From the IMG/VR virus record IMGVR_UViG_3300045988_024436, positions 1 through 22,928 of that record: a DNA stretch of 22,928 bases, one strand, 5' to 3'. Every line of letters starts with the position of its first letter. The stretch's first letter is position 1. A program made the position numbers and the translations under genes. Positions 1,334 through 18,911 of this stretch are shown piece by piece. Source of the stretch: a virus. Taxonomy: Duplodnaviria > Heunggongvirae > Uroviricota > Caudoviricetes. Under the pieces are notes generated by a model that had not been told where the DNA came from, did no database searches, and worked only from the letters and a program-made list of their open reading frames with translations.

Positions 1334-2361
1334 TTACTCGAATTCTGGACGCATATCGTTAAGCGTCATCATGAATTTTTGGTGATATTCATCACCGAGC
1401 TTTTCAGCCATGGTGTTAATCTCATTTTCAGCGCGCTTGAACATCGTTTTTGCATCTTCAGCAGATGGATCCAGGCTATTAAGTATCGCGATGATATATT
1501 CTCGAGCTTCTTCTCGTTCTGAATCTGAAATTGGCGACAGGTGTTGACGCTCATCGTCAACTACGGAATATTCACCAGTGATAACAGCTGCGTTATCTTG
1601 GCTAAGTCCAGCTTCAGCGCGCTCATCCATAACAACAGCCTTCTGCATTTCAATAGAAACAGGAAGATATTTGAATTGGTCGGCGAATTACTGTTTTTTT
1701 TAGCCATCTCATCGAAGTGATCAACCCATGGGCCACTGCTACCTGCTTTGCTCAGTGCACGAACTTTCTCAATGTCTGCCCGGCTCATAACTTCAAATTT
1801 GGACTCCGCCATCTTTCAGTCGTGCAATCGGCGTAAACGTGCGTTTAATTCTCCGCGGTCACCTGTTTCGCAAGGTAAATGCTCGAGCGTTTCTTCCAGG
1901 CCGTATGAGTAGCTGAATTTGTCGTTTGTATGTACGGTACGAGCCGAGATACTCAGGATCTGCCCAGAGCGGCGGGCAAGGTCAATCATTCCGCGATAGC
2001 CGATAATCAGCTGTGCTTCTGTAGATACGGTTTCCCATCTTCCATTTACTTTCTGGCGTTTGTCGAACGGTATCAGGTAAGCGTGTCCAAGAGCTCCGCC
2101 TGGTTCAAGACCCAATTGGGCACATTGCATAATTGCCCCCAGGAAGCTGGCTTGGTCGCATGATGCAAGTTTTGGAACCTTTCGGATCTCTGTGGTTGCT
2201 ATGCGCGCCAGACGGTCTGCTGTCATGTGCTTTGGAAGTGCCAAAGCCATCTGAGCTTTAATTTTTGGGTCTGCCAGAAGTCCGGCCAGAGTTGTTGGTT
2301 TCTCATTATGATGTGCAACTTGGTTACCGGTAGCCGCTGCCTTAAGTGCATTGATAGACAT
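1334..2361 (-). pseudogene. recT: RecT-family single-strand annealing recombinase, interrupted by an in-frame TGA and frame changes (or sequencing errors)
   Basis: Three consecutive minus-strand ORFs (1816-2361, 1561-1812, 1334-1648) each match successive parts of RecT: ALPKHMTADRLARIATTEIRKVP...QLIIGYRGMIDLARRSGQI, then FEVMSRADIEKVRALSKAGSSGPWVDHFDEMAKK, then MQKAVVMDER...TGEYSVVD. TGA at 1816-1818 is in frame between the first two. RecT-like peptides HVYA, ARLKDGG and KFEVM lie in three different frames around 1786-1845. The frame changes again at the T8 run 1694-1701. Confidence 0.65.
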
Positions 2362-3530: not shown

Positions 3531-3570
3531 GATTTTTTTGAAGATTTTTTCTGCTGATTAACGTTCATTA

Positions 3571-6883: not shown

Positions 6884-7231
6884 ATGAGAAAACAGATGCA
6901 GGCTCTTGGTCGACTCAAAACAGGCCAGATGAACAAAACAGAATCTGCGTATTGCCAGCACCTTGAGCAGCGTAAACGTGCAGGGGAAATCGCTTGGTAT
7001 CGATTCGAGGGTATCAAGCTGCGGTTAGCTGACAACACGTTCTATACGCCAGATTTCGCTGTGATGCTCGCCACCGGCGAGATGGAACTGCACGAAGTGA
7101 AAGGGGGATTCTGGACCGACGACGCCAGGGTGAAAACCAAAGTCGCCGCAGATCAGTATCCGTTCCGAATCATCGGGGTAACGGTTAAACCAAAGAAAGC
7201 TGGTGGTGGCTGGAACATCGAAGAGTTCTGA
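6884..7231 (+). CDS. putative PD-(D/E)XK nuclease (VRR-NUC-like)
   Basis: 115 aa; D...ELHEVKGG arrangement (YTPDFAVMLATGEMELHEVKGG) suggests a D-x(n)-E-x-K active site. Confidence 0.45.
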   Translation: MRKQMQALGRLKTGQMNKTESAYCQHLEQRKRAGEIAWYRFEGIKLRLADNTFYTPDFAVMLATGEMELHEVKGGFWTDDARVKTKVAADQYPFRIIGVTVKPKKAGGGWNIEEF

Positions 7232-7335
7232 ATCGACGATCTTTTTAGTTATCAATGTAATCAATAAGTTATGTGGATAAGCGAGGGTAAAGATGGAAAG
7301 TAATATCAAAAGGGTTAGTTGCCGCCGGGCATGAG

Positions 7336-7755
7336 ATGGCTTCGGAACTGAAAGCTGAATGTGGTGCCGTTGATATGCGCAGTGTGGCAAAGCTGATCAG
7401 CGATTTGGCAACGCAACTGGAAGTGCAACTGGTGCGTGCTAATGCGCTGGCGGCGGAGAATGCGGCGCTGAAACACGCAATGGCCGTAACTCTTGAGCAT
7501 GTGTCGGTCACGGATGCAGGGCAGGCTGGTGTTGCTGCAATGATTATCAACGATGCCCTATACCACAGCGAAACTCCGGTCACCGACGCTCTCCTGGCTG
7601 AAGTACGTGCGCAGGCGTTTAATGACCTTTGCTCGGTGTTCGTTAAGGACGCGACGGTTGCCGGGCTGGACGATGGCGACATCGTTACGGTGAAAGAAGC
7701 GACGGACGCCCTGCTGCATTGTGCGGAGCAGCTTCGCAAAGGAGGCAACCAGTGA
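7336..7755 (+). CDS. hypothetical protein
   Basis: 139-aa track ORF on the coding strand of the operon; weak SD; the minus-strand ORF 7269-7925 is treated as antisense. Confidence 0.4.
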   Translation: MASELKAECGAVDMRSVAKLISDLATQLEVQLVRANALAAENAALKHAMAVTLEHVSVTDAGQAGVAAMIINDALYHSETPVTDALLAEVRAQAFNDLCSVFVKDATVAGLDDGDIVTVKEATDALLHCAEQLRKGGNQ

Positions 7756-8306
7756 GCAAGATTGATTATCAAAAGCTTCGTGAAATCGCTGAAAAAACAA
7801 AAATTGCTGGTGAAGCACCTGTAATGCCTTTCGATCAGCGAATTAATGCGCTTAACGATTTTATGAAGCACTTTTCGCCAGATATCGCGCTGGCATTGTT
7901 GGATGAACGGGAAAGAAACCTGCAATACATCAAAAGCCGCGATCAGGAGAACGAGGATATTGCGCTAACGGTAGGGAAGCTGCGTGTTGAGCTGGAAGGC
8001 AAAGACAGCAAAATAGCCAATCTTACCGCCGAACGCGATGCTCTTCGTGAAGGTGAGATGGGCGACGCTAGGCATAGCAACACACGGGCCGCAGCTGATA
8101 TCTACTTCCAACTGGTCGAGGAGTGCGAAATTCCTGCTGGCGGTTCTCTGGTCGAGTACGTTGACGATATGCGCGAGAAGCTGGAAGCCGCAGAGAAGCG
8201 CATTGCAGAACTGGAAGCACGGGAAATAAAACCAGCCAAAGGTGAAGTTCTTGTCGTTGTTCTGGTTTTACTGGTTGCGGAAAAAGCGCCATCGCCGGGG
8301 AAATAG
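7752..8306 (+). CDS. coiled-coil protein, Ead/Ea22-like
   Basis: GTG at 7752 with SD AAAGGAGG 6 nt upstream, overlapping the upstream stop (GTGA); SKIDYQKLREIAEK... then heptad-rich LEAAEKRIAELEAR; hydrophobic C-terminus VLVVVLVLLVA. Confidence 0.45.
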   Translation: MSKIDYQKLREIAEKTKIAGEAPVMPFDQRINALNDFMKHFSPDIALALLDERERNLQYIKSRDQENEDIALTVGKLRVELEGKDSKIANLTAERDALREGEMGDARHSNTRAAADIYFQLVEECEIPAGGSLVEYVDDMREKLEAAEKRIAELEAREIKPAKGEVLVVVLVLLVAEKAPSPGK

Positions 8307-8314
8307 AAATCGCG

Positions 8315-8503
8315 ATGAAGGCTATTGGTGTACCGGTTAAGTGGACTAATGGCGATGCAGAAAAGCGCATGACTGGCGCTGACTGGCTGACAGCGATTGA
8401 GATGTACAAACCAACTGTGCGCATCGTGGAAGTTAATGTGCCATGCGTCGCTGGCATTTGCATCAAAGGAGACGCAGGAGAGCAAAACGATGAAAAACCG
8501 TAA
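8315..8503 (+). CDS. hypothetical small protein
   Basis: 62 aa; on the operon strand; weak SD. Confidence 0.35.
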   Translation: MKAIGVPVKWTNGDAEKRMTGADWLTAIEMYKPTVRIVEVNVPCVAGICIKGDAGEQNDEKP

Positions 8504-8678
8504 AGCAAAGATTCTGTTAGTTCGTAGAAACGCTCCTGGCGTCTGGCAGTGGGTGAGACTCAGCAACCGACGGATGGGGTTGATGAAATATTACGGGATG
8601 ATGGATTGTGGTTTTTGCAAAAAGCCCAGCGCGGCGCAAAACCGCTGGAAAAACCACTTGCGTACTAAAGGAGAGTGA
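8490..8678 (+). CDS. hypothetical small basic protein
   Basis: 62 aa from ATG at 8490 with GGAG 9 nt upstream; MKNRKAKILLVRRNAPGVWQW...; C-terminal part of track ORF 8397-8678. Confidence 0.35.
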   Translation: MKNRKAKILLVRRNAPGVWQWVRLSNRRMGLMKYYGMMDCGFCKKPSAAQNRWKNHLRTKGE

Positions 8679-8679
8679 T

Positions 8680-8889
8680 ATGGCTATCGCTGCAAGTTAC
8701 ACCATGCATCTCTATTGTGACTGCCGTCAGTGCACGGAAGGTGTATATCCAGTGCCAGACTTCGGTGAGTATATAGGTACGTCATGGGCTGGCTGTGCAA
8801 AAGAGGCGCGCAAGGATGGCTGGCGAATAAGCAAAGACAAAACGCGTGCTTTTGCGCCCGGGCATAAAGTTTTGAGGATTAACAAATGA
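8680..8889 (+). CDS. small Cys-rich protein
   Basis: 69 aa from ATG at 8680 with SD AAGGAGAG; CDCRQC cluster; contains FGEYI, shared with the 10384 gene. Confidence 0.4.
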   Translation: MAIAASYTMHLYCDCRQCTEGVYPVPDFGEYIGTSWAGCAKEARKDGWRISKDKTRAFAPGHKVLRINK

Positions 8890-9833
8890 CCACTATTACC
8901 AGAGAACAAGCTCTGAAAATTATTGAGGCAGCCGATGAGGTTATTAGTGCGCTGGCCGGAACTAACGAGGATGTTCACCCTGGTAGCGATAACATGCTAC
9001 GCCTGTGGGATGACCTGAATGACCGTTACGCGCCGCCGGAAATTGTGCGTGAACTGGCACGGATTGTGCTGGCATCGCTGGAAGCCGAGCCTGTTCTGTA
9101 TCAGTCCTGCACTCGCCCCACCTGGAATAGCGGTGTTCCGTGGACGGAATGGAAAGAACGAAGTCGTGAGTGCTACGAAGACGATTTGCGCTTTACAGAC
9201 ACGCCTGACCATGCCGGTTGGATATACAAATGTCGAAAACTATATACCACTCCGCCAGCGCCGATAGCGTTAGAGGCCATTGAAAACGCAATTGAATACA
9301 TCCGCAGTATCGCTTTTCACATCGATGAAGACGATTACCACGGCAAACATATTGCGTATTTCATGCAGCAAGCATTGGCCTGGCTGGAAGGGCATTCATG
9401 CAGCGACGACAGACTGGGTAAAGCCGAGAATCAACCAGTACGCGGCAACCAGGCTGCCGAATCCAATCGCGATAATGAGTGGACTGGCAATCCTGATATT
9501 GATAACGCCATCATCATGCTCGACCGCATAGATACGCTGGAAAATTGCGATGATGACCGTATTGAGGCTGTTAAGGCTGTTTTGCGTAGACTGGCTGGCA
9601 ACTATCCGGTAATTCCGGATGGTTGGATAAGCTGTAGTGAGCGAATGCCTGAGAACATTCCCGGAAGTTGTAAAGAGTATCTGGTGTTTGATGGGCTTAA
9701 TAATAAAGTTCATCACGATTACTGGGTTGTCCCTGATGGAGACAGTGCGCCAGTTGCGTCGTTCTGGAATCATTACGGGGCACATGTAACTCACTGGATG
9801 CCTCTACCGGAACCGCCGCAGGAGGTTAATTGA
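8886..9833 (+). CDS. DUF551-like phage protein
   Basis: 315 aa; C-terminal GWISCSERMPE...VTHWMPLPEPPQ resembles the DUF551 signature as recalled; SD GAGGA before the ATG. Confidence 0.55.
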   Translation: MTTITREQALKIIEAADEVISALAGTNEDVHPGSDNMLRLWDDLNDRYAPPEIVRELARIVLASLEAEPVLYQSCTRPTWNSGVPWTEWKERSRECYEDDLRFTDTPDHAGWIYKCRKLYTTPPAPIALEAIENAIEYIRSIAFHIDEDDYHGKHIAYFMQQALAWLEGHSCSDDRLGKAENQPVRGNQAAESNRDNEWTGNPDIDNAIIMLDRIDTLENCDDDRIEAVKAVLRRLAGNYPVIPDGWISCSERMPENIPGSCKEYLVFDGLNNKVHHDYWVVPDGDSAPVASFWNHYGAHVTHWMPLPEPPQEVN

Positions 9834-10722: not shown

Positions 10723-10771
10723 CATGTCACGAGTAGATTATGCATGATGAATTTGATGGGGTTTGAATACT

Positions 10772-10797
10772 GCCGCCAACTATGGCGGCTTTATTTT
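10772..10797 (+). terminator. rho-independent terminator between accessory genes and terminase
   Basis: GCCGCC-AACTAT-GGCGGC followed by TTTATTTT. Confidence 0.55.
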
Positions 10798-10803
10798 GCA
10801 TGG

Positions 10804-10841
10804 TACTATTACCACAACGGTAACTATTACCACGGTGGTTA
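10804..10841 (+). promoter_or_regulatory. operator-like palindromes and direct repeat upstream of the terminase small subunit
   Basis: TTACCacaacGGTAA at 10809-10823 and TTACCacggtGGTTA at 10827-10841; direct repeat ACTATTACCAC at 10806-10816 and 10824-10834. Confidence 0.4.
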
Positions 10842-11296
10842 TGATGCCTGCTGAACCTAAAGCCTATAAACGCAAATCAACGCAATTTAAGCCACTAACA
10901 GCAATGCAGGAGGCTTATTGCCAGTCATACATCAAAACGCCTGAAAACCAGACTCAGGCAGCGATTAACGCAGGATTCTCCCCAAATACAGCGGCAGTTA
11001 AAGCCAGTGTCATGATGCGCGATGAACGCATTCAAAAACGGATTGCCGAGTTGATGGAGGAGCGCAACAAACGAATGCGCGTCAGTGCTGATTACGTTCT
11101 CATGCGCTTGGTGGAGATCGACCAGATGGACGTGATCGACATCCTCAACGACGATGGTAGCCTTAAGCCAATCCGAGAGTGGCCGAAAATCTGGCGCACT
11201 ACGCTTAGCGGCTTTGATCTGTCATCGACCATCATGAACATGAACGAGGATTCGATAGAGACAATCATCAAAAAATTAAATGGCCTGACAAGGTGA
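10841..11296 (+). CDS. terminase small subunit, probably C-terminally truncated by a frame change
   Basis: Track ORF starts at 10763 but its first 26 codons are the terminator and operator DNA, so ATG at 10841 or 10844 is preferred. A protein-like frame ([20 protein letters not shown]...[10 protein letters not shown]) continues from 11290 to a TGA at 11431-11433 that overlaps the GTG of the large subunit. Confidence 0.55.
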
Positions 11297-11429
11297 AGAA
11301 CCTCGAACTGATTGGTAAGCACGTCGACGTCAACGCATTCAAAGAACGCCTGGATGTTAATGTGAATGTGACAATTGCTGATCGCATAGCGGCAGCCAGG
11401 AAGAGACTGAAGAACGTCAGTGGCAATCA

Positions 11430-12908
11430 GTGACAGATACAGCGTTATCTCCTGAAGAGCAGTTAATCGAGATATTGCAGGGTTCACTCACGATCCGCTT
11501 GGCTATGCCCTCTATGGGTTCCCCGTGGGGGGGAAGGAGGGTACTGAACTGGCGACATGCCACCGGTCCACGTCAGTGGCAGGCCGATGCGTTCCGAGAG
11601 ATACGTGATCACCTGCAGAATCCAGAGACGCGATATCAGCCGCTTATGCTGGCACGTGCTTCTGGTCACGGTATTGGTAAATCCGCATTCATCTCAATGC
11701 TGATCAACTGGGGCATGTCCACTTGCGAGGATTGTAAGGTCGTGGTGACCGCCAACACCGACAACCAGCTACGAACGAAGACCTGGCCGGAAATTATCAA
11801 GTGGTCAAACCTTGCTATCACGAAAGACTGGTTTACCTGTACCGCTACCGCGATGTACAGCAATGACCCTGGGCACGACAAGCGGTGGCGAGCTGACGCA
11901 ATCCCCTGGTCTGAGCACAACACTGAGGCATTCGCCGGACTACACAACGAGCGTAAACGCATCATCGTGGTATTTGATGAAGCGTCGAACATTGCGGATC
12001 TGGTGTGGGAAGTTGCCGAGGGTGCGCTAACGGACGAAGACACTGAGATTATCTGGGTGGCTTTCGGAAACCCTACACGTAACACCGGGCGTTTCCGTGA
12101 ATGTTTCCGCAAATACAAACACCGCTGGAAAACTGCGCAGATTGACAGCAGGACGGTGGAAGGCACCAACAAACAGCAGTTGCAGAAATGGGTTGATGAC
12201 TACGGGGAAGATAGCGACTTCGTTAAAATCCGTGTGCGTGGCATATTCCCTGATGCATCTGAATTGCAGTTTATCCCTACCGGTCTTACTGACGAGGCAA
12301 TGAAACGGGTGGTAACTGCTGCGCAGGTGGCACATGCTCCGGTGATAATCGGCGTTGACCCGGCATACTCCGGCGTTGATGACGCTGTGATATACCTGCG
12401 GCAGGGGCTACACAGTAAGGTGCTGTGGACTGGCAACAAGACTACCGACGATCTGATTATGGCGAAGCGTATCGCTGACTTTGAAGACCAGTATCAGGCT
12501 GACGCGGTGTTCATCGACTTCGGTTACGGAACCGGTTTGAAGTCAATCGGTGACGGCTGGGGTCGTACATGGCAACTTGTTCCGTTCGGTGGCGCGTCTA
12601 CTGACCAGCAGATGCTCAACAAGCGTGGGGAGATGTTCAACTCATGCAAGACATGGCTGAGGCTGGGCGGCATGCTTGATGACCAGGAAACAGCGGACGA
12701 CCTGTCGGCGGCAGAGTACAAAGTTCGAGTGGACGGTAAAATCGTTATCGAACCGAAGGAAGATATCAAGGAGCGGCTTGGGCGTTCTCCTGGTAAAGGC
12801 GATGCGCTACTGCTGACGTTTGCGTTCCCGGTGTCAAAGCGCCTGCGAATTCCCGGGCAGCAGAACCAGCAAGGCAAGGCCATTACAGATTACGATCCCT
12901 ATGCTTAA
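11430..12908 (+). CDS. terminase large subunit
   Basis: 492 aa; ATPase-like N-terminal half and nuclease-like C-terminal half ([11 protein letters not shown]...DAV); GTG start overlaps the upstream stop. Confidence 0.8.
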
Positions 12909-12978: not shown

Positions 12979-13184
12979 GTTTGTGACATGTCACGGTGTT
13001 AGAAGGTTATTTTATCGAATGCGGCGTTGATTGCCTTGGCGTCCTGCTCAGCACCAACCACATCAAGTAAAGATCTTTTACTAAGCACTTCAGCCAGGCA
13101 TTGTAACTTCATTGTTGTATAAGGTTTTTCGCGCATTGTAATTCATCATCACTTTTTTCTTTGGCGTATACAGCGCGAGAAATA

Positions 13185-13427
13185 TCAAACTACATTGCCT
13201 TTTTCCATTTCAGTTTTCTGCGCTGAAATCCAGTCATGGCAAGTAACTCCTATTCCATGGTCATCGCTAAGCGTTAACCCGGCAAGTCGCTCACCTGGAA
13301 TTGCTTCACAAAGCATTTCATTTCCTGCAAAAACACCATAAAAAATTGAGTCATCACCCTGAACAATGCGTACATATTTGCACGGCCATTCATTTAGATA
13401 TTTAGCTAGCATGTCGGCTGTTTTCAT
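13185..13427 (-). CDS. hypothetical 80-aa protein in minus-strand insert between terminase and head genes
   Basis: ATG at 13425-13427 with SD AAGGTGAG; opposite strand to the flanking late genes; lies between two minus-strand terminators. Confidence 0.4.
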   Translation of the reverse strand: MKTADMLAKYLNEWPCKYVRIVQGDDSIFYGVFAGNEMLCEAIPGERLAGLTLSDDHGIGVTCHDWISAQKTEMEKGNVV

Positions 13428-13582: not shown

Positions 13583-13626
13583 AAGCCCCTGGAACTTCTG
13601 GCATCACGGTCCTTAGGCGTGATTCT

Positions 13627-13702
13627 GGCGTGGCATGCAGGATTCGAACCTGCGACCAACCGCTTAGAAGGCGGTTGCTCTGTCCAGCTGAGCTAATGCC
13701 AC
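13627..13702 (-). tRNA. tRNA-Arg (anticodon UCU)
   Basis: Reverse complement GTGGCATTAGCTCAGCTGGACAGAGCAACCGCCTTCTAAGCGGTTGGTCGCAGGTTCGAATCCTGCATGCCACGCCA folds as a cloverleaf: 7-bp acceptor stem, anticodon loop CTTCTAA, T-loop TTCGAAT, encoded CCA. Close to E. coli argU as recalled. Confidence 0.9.
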
Positions 13703-14350: not shown

Positions 14351-16028
14351 ATGGCGGAAACAACTAAAGAGCGATTGAACAAACAGTTCGCACAACTTGA
14401 AAGCGAGCGTCAGTCGTTCGAGCCGCACTGGCGCGAGTTGAGTGATTACATCAACCCGCGTGGTTCCCGCTTTCTGACTTCTGAGGTTAACCGTAACGAT
14501 CGACGCAATACACGCATTATTGATTCGACCGGGACTATGGCGGCGCGCACTCTCGCCAGCGGCATGATGTCAGGCATCACAGCCCCGCGCGTCCGTGGTT
14601 TCGCCTGGCTAGCCAGATCCTGAAATGATGGATTATGGCCCTGTTAAGTTGTGGCTTGAGGCGGTGCAGAACCGCATGAACGATATGTTCAATAAGTCGA
14701 ATCTCTATCAGTCGCTGCCGCAGTTATACGGAAGCCTCGGCACATACAGCACTGGTGCAATGGCAGTGCTGGAGGATGACGAGGACATCATTCGCACAAT
14801 GCCATTCCCGATAGGCAGTTACTACCTGGCTAACTCACCTCGTGGCAGTGTGGACACCTGTTTTCGCAAGTTCTCTATGACTGTTCGTCAGCTTGTTCAG
14901 GAGTTCGGGCTAAATAACGTCAGCGAATCCGTAAAAAGCATGTGGGAAAGCGGAACCTACGAGAAGTGGATTGAAGTGATGCATTCGGTTTACCCGAACA
15001 TTGACCGCGATACATCGAAGCTGGATAGCAAGAACAAGCCATTCAAATCGGTTTATTACGAGGTTGGTGGCGATAACGACAAGTTGTTGCGTGAGTCCGG
15101 ATTCGATGAGTTTCCAATTATGGCTCCGCGCTGGGAAGTTAACGGCGAAGATGTTTATGGATCATCATGCCCGGGTATGCTGGCGCTTGGACCTGTTAAG
15201 GCATTGCAGCTTCTCCAGAAGCGCAAGTCGCAGTTGATTGATAAAGCCACCAATCCGCCGATGGTTGCTCCGACTTCCCTCAAGAATCAGCGTGCCTCCC
15301 TTCTTCCTGGCGACATCACGTATATCGATCAGATTACTGGTCAGGATGGTTTCAGGCCTGCTTATCTGGTTAACCCCAGTACAGCAGATTTGGTGGCAGA
15401 CATTCAGGACACCCGTCAAATCATTAACAGCGCCTACTTTGTCGATCTGTTCATGATGTTGCAGAACATCAATACCCGCTCGATGCCTGTTGAAGCGGTG
15501 ATCGAAATGAAAGAAGAAAAACTTCTGATGTTGGGGCCGGTTCTGGAGCGTCTGAACGACGAATGTCTTAATCCTCTCATTGACCGCGCTTTCTCGATGA
15601 TGGTGCGTAAAAACATGCTGCCGCCACCGCCTGACGCGATGGAAGGTATGCCCCTGAAGGTCGAATACATTTCCGTCATGGCTCAGGCGCAGAAGTCTAT
15701 CGGCCTGTCCAGTCTGGCGTCTACGGTCAACTTCATTGGTCAACTTGCGCAAGCGAAACCAGAAGCTCTCGACAAACTCAACGTTGATCAGGCGATCGAT
15801 GCATTCGCTGATATGTCCGGAGTGTCTCCAACCGTCATTGTTCCGCAGGAACAGGTTGAGCAGGCTCGCCAGCAACGGGCACAGCAACAACAGCAGCAAC
15901 AAATGATGGCGATGGGGATGGCGGCGGCACAGGGTGCCAAGACGCTAAGCGAAGCTAAAACTTCGGATCCGAGTGTTTTGTCAGCTATGGCGAATGCAGT
16001 TAGTGGTCAGGGTGGGCAATCACAATGA
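14351..16028 (+). pseudogene. portal (head-to-tail connector) protein, apparently split by two nearby frame changes (or sequencing errors)
   Basis: ORFs 14351-14623 (90 aa) and 14625-16028 (467 aa) are in different frames. The third frame across the junction encodes SPARPWFRLA (14581-14610), which resembles the P-x3-W-x-RL stretch of T7 gp8; a C4 run lies at 14583-14586. Poly-Q near the C-terminus. Confidence 0.65.
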
Positions 16029-18893: not shown

Positions 18894-18911
18894 GCAGGAG
18901 TATAGAAACTT

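Follow-up and report, generated by a model that had tools for sequence, protein, structure and literature searches.

The split small terminase gene of a Uetakevirus-like metagenome contig and the one-base difference at its A run

The small terminase subunit (TerS) gene of the phage DNA analyzed here changes frame at a short run of adenines, and the locus raises the question of whether this frame change is a property of the phage or of the sequence. The window, that is, the whole stretch of 22,928 nucleotides under study, is identical to the complete ENA contig ERZ504722 NODE_606_length_22928_cov_2.671813 from a metagenome assembly, and it represents the left and middle part of a phiV10/epsilon15-like (Uetakevirus) prophage. 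A sequence-only reading of this region had noted the frame change and offered three possible origins for it, namely, a one-base deletion, a sequencing error or programmed slippage. The coordinates and frames given there match the sequence (Table 1). The frame-0 codons across the A6 run are ATC ATC AAA AAA TTA AAT GGC CTG ACA AGG TGA, and the frame-0 product from the ATG at 10841 is 151 aa long; the -1 frame is open from approximately 11218 to the TGA at 11431-11433. Adding one A to the run, or re-reading base 11275, yields a repaired TerS of 197 aa from the same ATG. The gene calls of the source contig split TerS into a 150-aa Terminase_2 ORF (10844-11296) and a 46-aa ORF (11293-11433).

Table 1. 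Features of the terminase region and of the other genes with indels in the window
Feature	Position	Strand	Basis or remark
RecT gene, broken by five single-T insertions (1676, 1694, 1798, 1828, 1844)	1334-2361	-	
Two private single-T insertions (T6 to T7, T5 to T6), 6 nt apart	3539-3545		5' end of minus-strand gene
First 145 codons of TerS (N-terminal and central part), from ATG 10841, frame 0	10841..11275	+	Pfam, alignment
A6 run, site of the missing base; relatives have A7 (CTC AAA AAA ATT)	11270..11275	+	alignment, BLAST survey
TerS, C-terminal 52 codons, displaced to the -1 frame, ending GNQ*	11276..11433	+	homology to TerS of relatives
Premature frame-0 TGA, preceded by 6 out-of-frame codons (LNGLTR)	11294..11296	+	sequence
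Loss of three further bases from the TerS tail (private; net -3), KERQDGNQ to KNVSGNQ	11409..11421	+	
TerL ORF, 492 aa; start GTG shares bases with the stop of the repaired TerS	11430..12908	+	identity to relatives
TerL N-terminal patch, five private one-base indels, net +3	11471..11554	+	
Small hypothetical gene, split into 45-aa and 80-aa ORFs	12999-13427	-	140 aa in APEC E16002
Portal gene, split into 90-aa (14351-14623) and 467-aa (14625-16028) ORFs	14351-16028		two private one-base deletions (14581, 14612)

The protein encoded in the displaced frame

The tail in the -1 frame is strongly similar to the C-termini of known small terminases. In a tblastn comparison, residues 1-172 of the TerS of Escherichia coli APEC E16002 (224 aa) mapped to 10763-11278 in frame 2 with 98% identity, and residues 170-224 mapped to 11269-11430 in frame 1, the frame of the -1 tail, with 91% identity. 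The repaired protein belongs to the same family as the TerS (gene 1) of phiV10 and epsilon15 and the TerS of E. coli prophages (e.g. WP_001090120.1). It is 97-98% identical over the full length to the annotated TerS of three E. coli prophages, and its identity to the phage proteins is 97% for phiV10, 88% for Tyrion, 86% for SPN1S and 78% for epsilon15. Against the Pfam profile Terminase_2 (PF03592; gathering cut-off, 26.1 bits), the repaired TerS scores 105.6 bits and covers profile positions 1-138 of 141, whereas the truncated frame-0 protein scores 83.2 bits and covers, with its residues 19-124, positions 1-105 only. An 18-residue stretch of the tail is invariant in epsilon15, SPN1S, Tyrion and phiV10. 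The G1P protein of Bacillus phage SF6/SPP1 (PF03592; PDB 3zqp, 3zqq, 4zc3) is a distant relative, alignable at the sequence level only over parts. SF6 G1P combines an N-terminal DNA-binding domain with a C-terminal part for oligomerization and TerL contact; its DNA-binding domain (3zqp) is matched by TerS residues 14-93 (E = 6e-7), and residues 143-180, within the -1 tail, align weakly to SF6 G1P residues 121-158, including a DKxKxLELxGK motif.

Judged by these alignments, the -1 tail is no chance ORF but the real C-terminus of TerS, as the sequence-only reading had supposed. Comparison of the lengths of homologous proteins leads to the same conclusion: the homologues do not end at the equivalent of 11296 but read through it, which confirms the tail and leaves no need for recoding. 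The tail is longer than first thought, however. The initial count of 46 codons has to be replaced by 52 (IKWPDK plus the 46), with the homology starting at the A run, and its placement in the -1 frame stands. The proposed coupling to the large subunit (TerL) also holds: once the run is repaired or the tail is read in the -1 frame, the stop at 11431-11433 (TGA) shares bases with the GTG start at 11430-11432 (GTGA), and the same 4-nt stop/start overlap between TerS and TerL is found in the annotated relatives. By gene order, TerS lies immediately upstream of, and coupled to, TerL, the placement that identifies a small terminase. Overall, the gene is an ordinary member of the well-known Uetakevirus small terminase family, and there is nothing novel about it.

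The A run in relatives and the private indels of the contig

The window reads ATC AAA AAA TTA (A6) at the frame junction, whereas its relatives read CTC AAA AAA ATT AAA TGG (A7). The A7 run is present in the aligned sequences of three E. coli prophages, phiV10, ZX5 and APEC E16002, as well as in all 120 IMG/VR contigs that matched a search pattern accepting either A6 or A7. When all fetched loci were surveyed by BLAST, the window showed a one-base gap at the run relative to 126 of 126, and TerS is one continuous ORF in all these 126 related loci and in four more distant phages. No exact match to the A6 form was found in IMG/VR or in the JGI metagenomes. The best 60 E. coli matches to a 90-base query spanned 91 bases with 97.8% identity, and a copy with A6, for which 98.9-100% identity would be expected, was absent among these 60, which ranked above 417 weaker matches. 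The combined A6/A7 pattern had no match in the GTDB species representatives, which is uninformative given that the E. coli representative evidently lacks the prophage. Among the distant phages, all of which are single-frame, epsilon15 has CTC AAA AAA ATA and SPN1S has CTC AAA AAA ATC, and in Tyrion, a synonymous G interrupts the run (AAGAAAA; CTC AAG AAA ATA). A private C>A substitution is located at 11267, 3 nt upstream of the run. From this comparison, the run is plain Lys-Lys-Ile coding sequence and not a conserved slippery site, and the suggestion of a one-base deletion relative to the family proves correct (A7 to A6). The window differs from its relatives, in which TerS is a single ORF with A7 or AAGAAAA, also by the loss of three additional bases close to the 3' end of the gene.

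The contig name gives a coverage of about 2.7x which, following the SPAdes naming, we take to be k-mer coverage, that is, a depth of a few reads at best; thus, the sequence of the window rests on very few reads. A full-text search of the literature for the accession ERZ504722 returned no paper. Indels were sought in comparison with APEC E16002, phage ZX5, phiV10 and E. coli A33, and 18 private one-base indels were identified in the window, alongside 14 private substitutions. Differences common to some relatives, at 7106, at 7308 and in parts of 13065-13297, were left out of the private set. The first two of these, at 7106 (3 nt) and 7308, were considered as errors and rejected because 13-14 other loci have the same state as the window, with 28 of 41 and 28 of 42 loci, respectively, differing from it, so that they are natural polymorphisms. 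Almost all the private indels (17 of the 18) have another one within 200 nt, compared with a mean of 4.7 for random placement, and at least 17 clustered indels did not occur in any of 20,000 simulations. The patches are about 35-290 nt long, that is, of the size of a read; most of the private indels change the length of a homopolymer by +/-1, and one base dominates each patch. The natural ratio of indels to substitutions in E. coli mutation-accumulation data is approximately 1:10, and when this ratio is assumed, the probability of at least 18 indels alongside 14 substitutions is about 2e-14.

The lesion at the A run lies within one such private patch, with changes at 11158, 11176, 11267 and 11270, and then at 11412-11554. 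All of the 123-124 loci covering the deletions in the TerS tail differ from the window. In TerL, where one base is missing at 11471 and one is added at 11524, 11527/11533, 11536 and 11554, about 28 codons are read partly or entirely in the wrong frame until the correct one resumes, and the resulting spurious sequence differs from all relatives. Insertions of G dominate the patch at 11527-11554, and the G at 11554 is an extra base in comparison with all 121 covering loci. TerL comprises 491 aa in a relative, with 94.7% identity between the two, and the indels bring it to 492 aa in the window; an exact search with the window TerL matched contig NODE_606 of ERZ504722 alone, and a Pfam search returned no family at E <= 0.01, and accordingly, its identification rests on this similarity to annotated relatives. 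The portal protein is encoded by a single 559-aa ORF in the relatives, and residues 89-559 of the window version are otherwise 100% identical to a relative. Over 1.1 kb, the RecT region is the same as in E. coli A33 except for the five inserted T's and one adjacent substitution, and these insertions are absent in all of the best 8 of 79 E. coli matches to the region. The gene hit at 3539-3545 encodes a 99-aa hypothetical protein in the relatives, and 29 of 29 covering loci lack the T insertions. The small gene downstream of TerL is split by one-base insertions, mostly of T and G, at 13113-13297; natural divergence mixes here with probable errors, as some of the differences are common to a few loci.

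The net effect on the frame is -1 for the A run, -3 for the TerS tail, +3 for TerL, -2 for the portal gene and +5 for RecT. Selection for a restored frame was considered as an explanation of the TerS tail and TerL clusters and rejected: restoration in two of the five clusters fits chance, which is one third for each, and the frame is not restored at the A run, in the portal gene or in RecT. Outside the indel sites, protein identity to functional phages is 98-100%, with 100% for the major capsid protein.

The origin of the lost base

Programmed recoding would require that TerS is made in two forms, of 151 aa and 197 aa, at a set ratio, either by a -1 shift of the ribosome with tRNA-Lys on C AAA AAA U or by an A that RNA polymerase adds on the A6 run. 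The A-rich run is located exactly at the frame junction, and runs of lysine codons are known to be slippery in E. coli, as in dnaX (A AAA AAG). At the zero-frame heptamer C AAA AAA (11269-11275), which is non-canonical compared with X XXY YYZ, the sequence would allow the A-site tRNA to pair again without mismatch after a -1 shift, and the P-site tRNA to do so at two of three positions. The likeness to dnaX and to the G/GT frameshift of phage tail chaperones is confined to such a lysine-codon run at the frame change. Unlike these known programmed shifts, TerS has no conserved two-frame layout, stimulatory structure or conserved heptamer: the homologues make the full-length protein from one frame, in 126 of 126 loci and 4 distant phages, the two-frame layout is unique to the contig, and the Tyrion sequence shows that the run is not conserved. 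When folded, the 85 nt that follow the run (11276-11360) give -14.2 kcal/mol compared with a mean of -16.7 for shuffled sequences (z = +0.83; 165 of 200 shuffles are at least as stable), so that no stimulatory structure better than chance was detected in this segment, whose sequence is shared by relatives with no need for a shift. As to an upstream SD-like sequence, the sole GAGGA is about 20 nt from the run and is likewise present in single-frame relatives. Appreciable transcriptional slippage occurs on runs of about 8-9 or more A or T; the A6 run is shorter, and the relatives with A7 need no slippage. A literature search turned up no earlier case of programmed frameshifting in the gene of a small terminase; the sole paper with both terms in its abstract concerns, according to that abstract, tail-assembly chaperones rather than TerS, and the known phage cases concern tail chaperone or capsid genes. 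Programmed slippage, one of the three origins proposed at the outset, is contradicted by the comparison with relatives and appears highly improbable. Hardly more credible is a variant in which the A6 run is real, and low-level -1 slippage of tRNA-Lys or polymerase stutter on C AAA AAA U supplies enough TerS for packaging. If true, this would be a natural “leaky” frameshift rescue in a terminase gene.

The main alternative to an artefact is a real deletion. A private A7 to A6 deletion in the phage or prophage would leave a 151-aa TerS without the conserved C-terminal segment, in a packaging-defective, decaying element. Homopolymer runs are natural hotspots of +/-1 mutation, usually caused by replication slippage; damage is also seen in RecT, in the portal gene and in the small gene at 13002-13427, which is reminiscent of a cryptic prophage, and a decaying prophage could gather frameshifts in several genes; some of the RefSeq relatives contain frameshifted genes flagged by PGAP, for example, TerL in UID2404240036; and the two frame-restoring clusters would be expected under selection as well. 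Against such decay, the private indels outnumber the private substitutions, 18 to 14, and are arranged in read-sized patches dominated by a single base, which is not a product of neutral decay; the proteins between the patches are nearly identical to those of functional phages; the k-mer coverage is only about 2.7x; and A6 was not found in any other contig searched (IMG/VR, JGI metagenomes, the best 60 E. coli matches). We consider a real deletion unlikely. From the pattern expected of an intact phage that was read badly, that is, hits in random frame in essential genes combined with near-identical proteins elsewhere, we infer that the private indels are errors and not real mutations. The combination of short-run changes of +/-1, clustering in read-sized patches, privacy and a k-mer coverage of 2.67 resembles that of homopolymer errors at low coverage.

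The one-base difference at the run is unique to this contig, the contig name indicates low coverage, and many comparable private indels occur in clusters; on these grounds, the sequencing or assembly error that had been listed among the possibilities is the best supported origin. Judged from the contig and its relatives, the split TerS very probably arose as an artefact of base calling or assembly, in which a homopolymer was under-called at low coverage. The sampled phage would then carry the A7 run of the family and one continuous 198-codon TerS gene from the ATG at 10841, with a stop overlapping the TerL start. In a stretch of this contig of very low coverage, where support probably came from a single poor read or a few, the homopolymer would have been called one A too short, and the lost A would throw the last 52 codons of TerS into the -1 frame, with no recoding mechanism involved.

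The apparent recoding signal thus disappears once the relatives and the provenance of the contig are weighed. This case calls for caution because low-coverage metagenome contigs can mimic homopolymer frameshifts, complete with a protein-like tail and the correct stop/start coupling. The same error process has disrupted RecT and the portal gene and garbled part of TerL, and therefore, the gene calls of this contig are unfit as evidence of pseudogenes, novel short proteins or recoding.

Phage family and neighboring features

The genes of the window extend from a methyltransferase, RecT and the repressor, through replication, terminase and head genes, to internal virion proteins. Of 5426 complete E. 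coli genomes, about 517 contain a member of this prophage family, to which several isolated phages also belong. The window resembles the Uetakeviruses in the gene order, in the 4-nt TerS/TerL overlap and in an operator-like palindrome upstream of TerS. This palindrome, TTACCACAACGGTAAC at 10809-10824, is the likely counterpart, by sequence, of the annotated repressor-binding operator of epsilon15 (TTACCAAAACGGTAAT, genome positions 12-27), and a second copy of ATTACCAC is located at about 10826-10833.

The start of TerS is ambiguous within 10763-10843 of the window, with a TTG at 10763 competing with ATG codons at 10841/10844. PGAP starts the TerS of the relatives at the TTG (224 aa), which produces an odd MNTAANYGGFILHGTITTTVTITTVV leader overlapping the operator-like repeats. 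The phage records and the gene call of the contig (ATG 10844) use an ATG start, resulting in a TerS of 197-198 aa, and in Tyrion, a ribosome-binding site is annotated before the ATG of TerS. Of the two, the ATG start looks more plausible.

Several other features of the window were also noticed. The 327-nt gene for the gp10 “capsid staple”, present in phiV10, ZX5, APEC E16002 and A33, is missing at 18902-18911, where the window has 10 nt (ATAGAAACTT) instead. Because eight other fetched loci share exactly this gp10-less junction, the absence of the gene is, by this comparison, natural polymorphism within the family rather than an error. A tRNA-Arg gene (anticodon TCT; 13626-13702, minus strand) lies in the variable stretch that separates TerL from the portal gene; a tRNA-Arg is likewise annotated in APEC E16002, A33 and typing phages 9 and 10. 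Finally, the variable early “moron” region at 7300-9830, with eae-like and ead/Ea22-like genes and a DUF551 ORF of 315 aa (8886-9833), matches the closest relatives only patchily, which is normal mosaicism for this group of phages.
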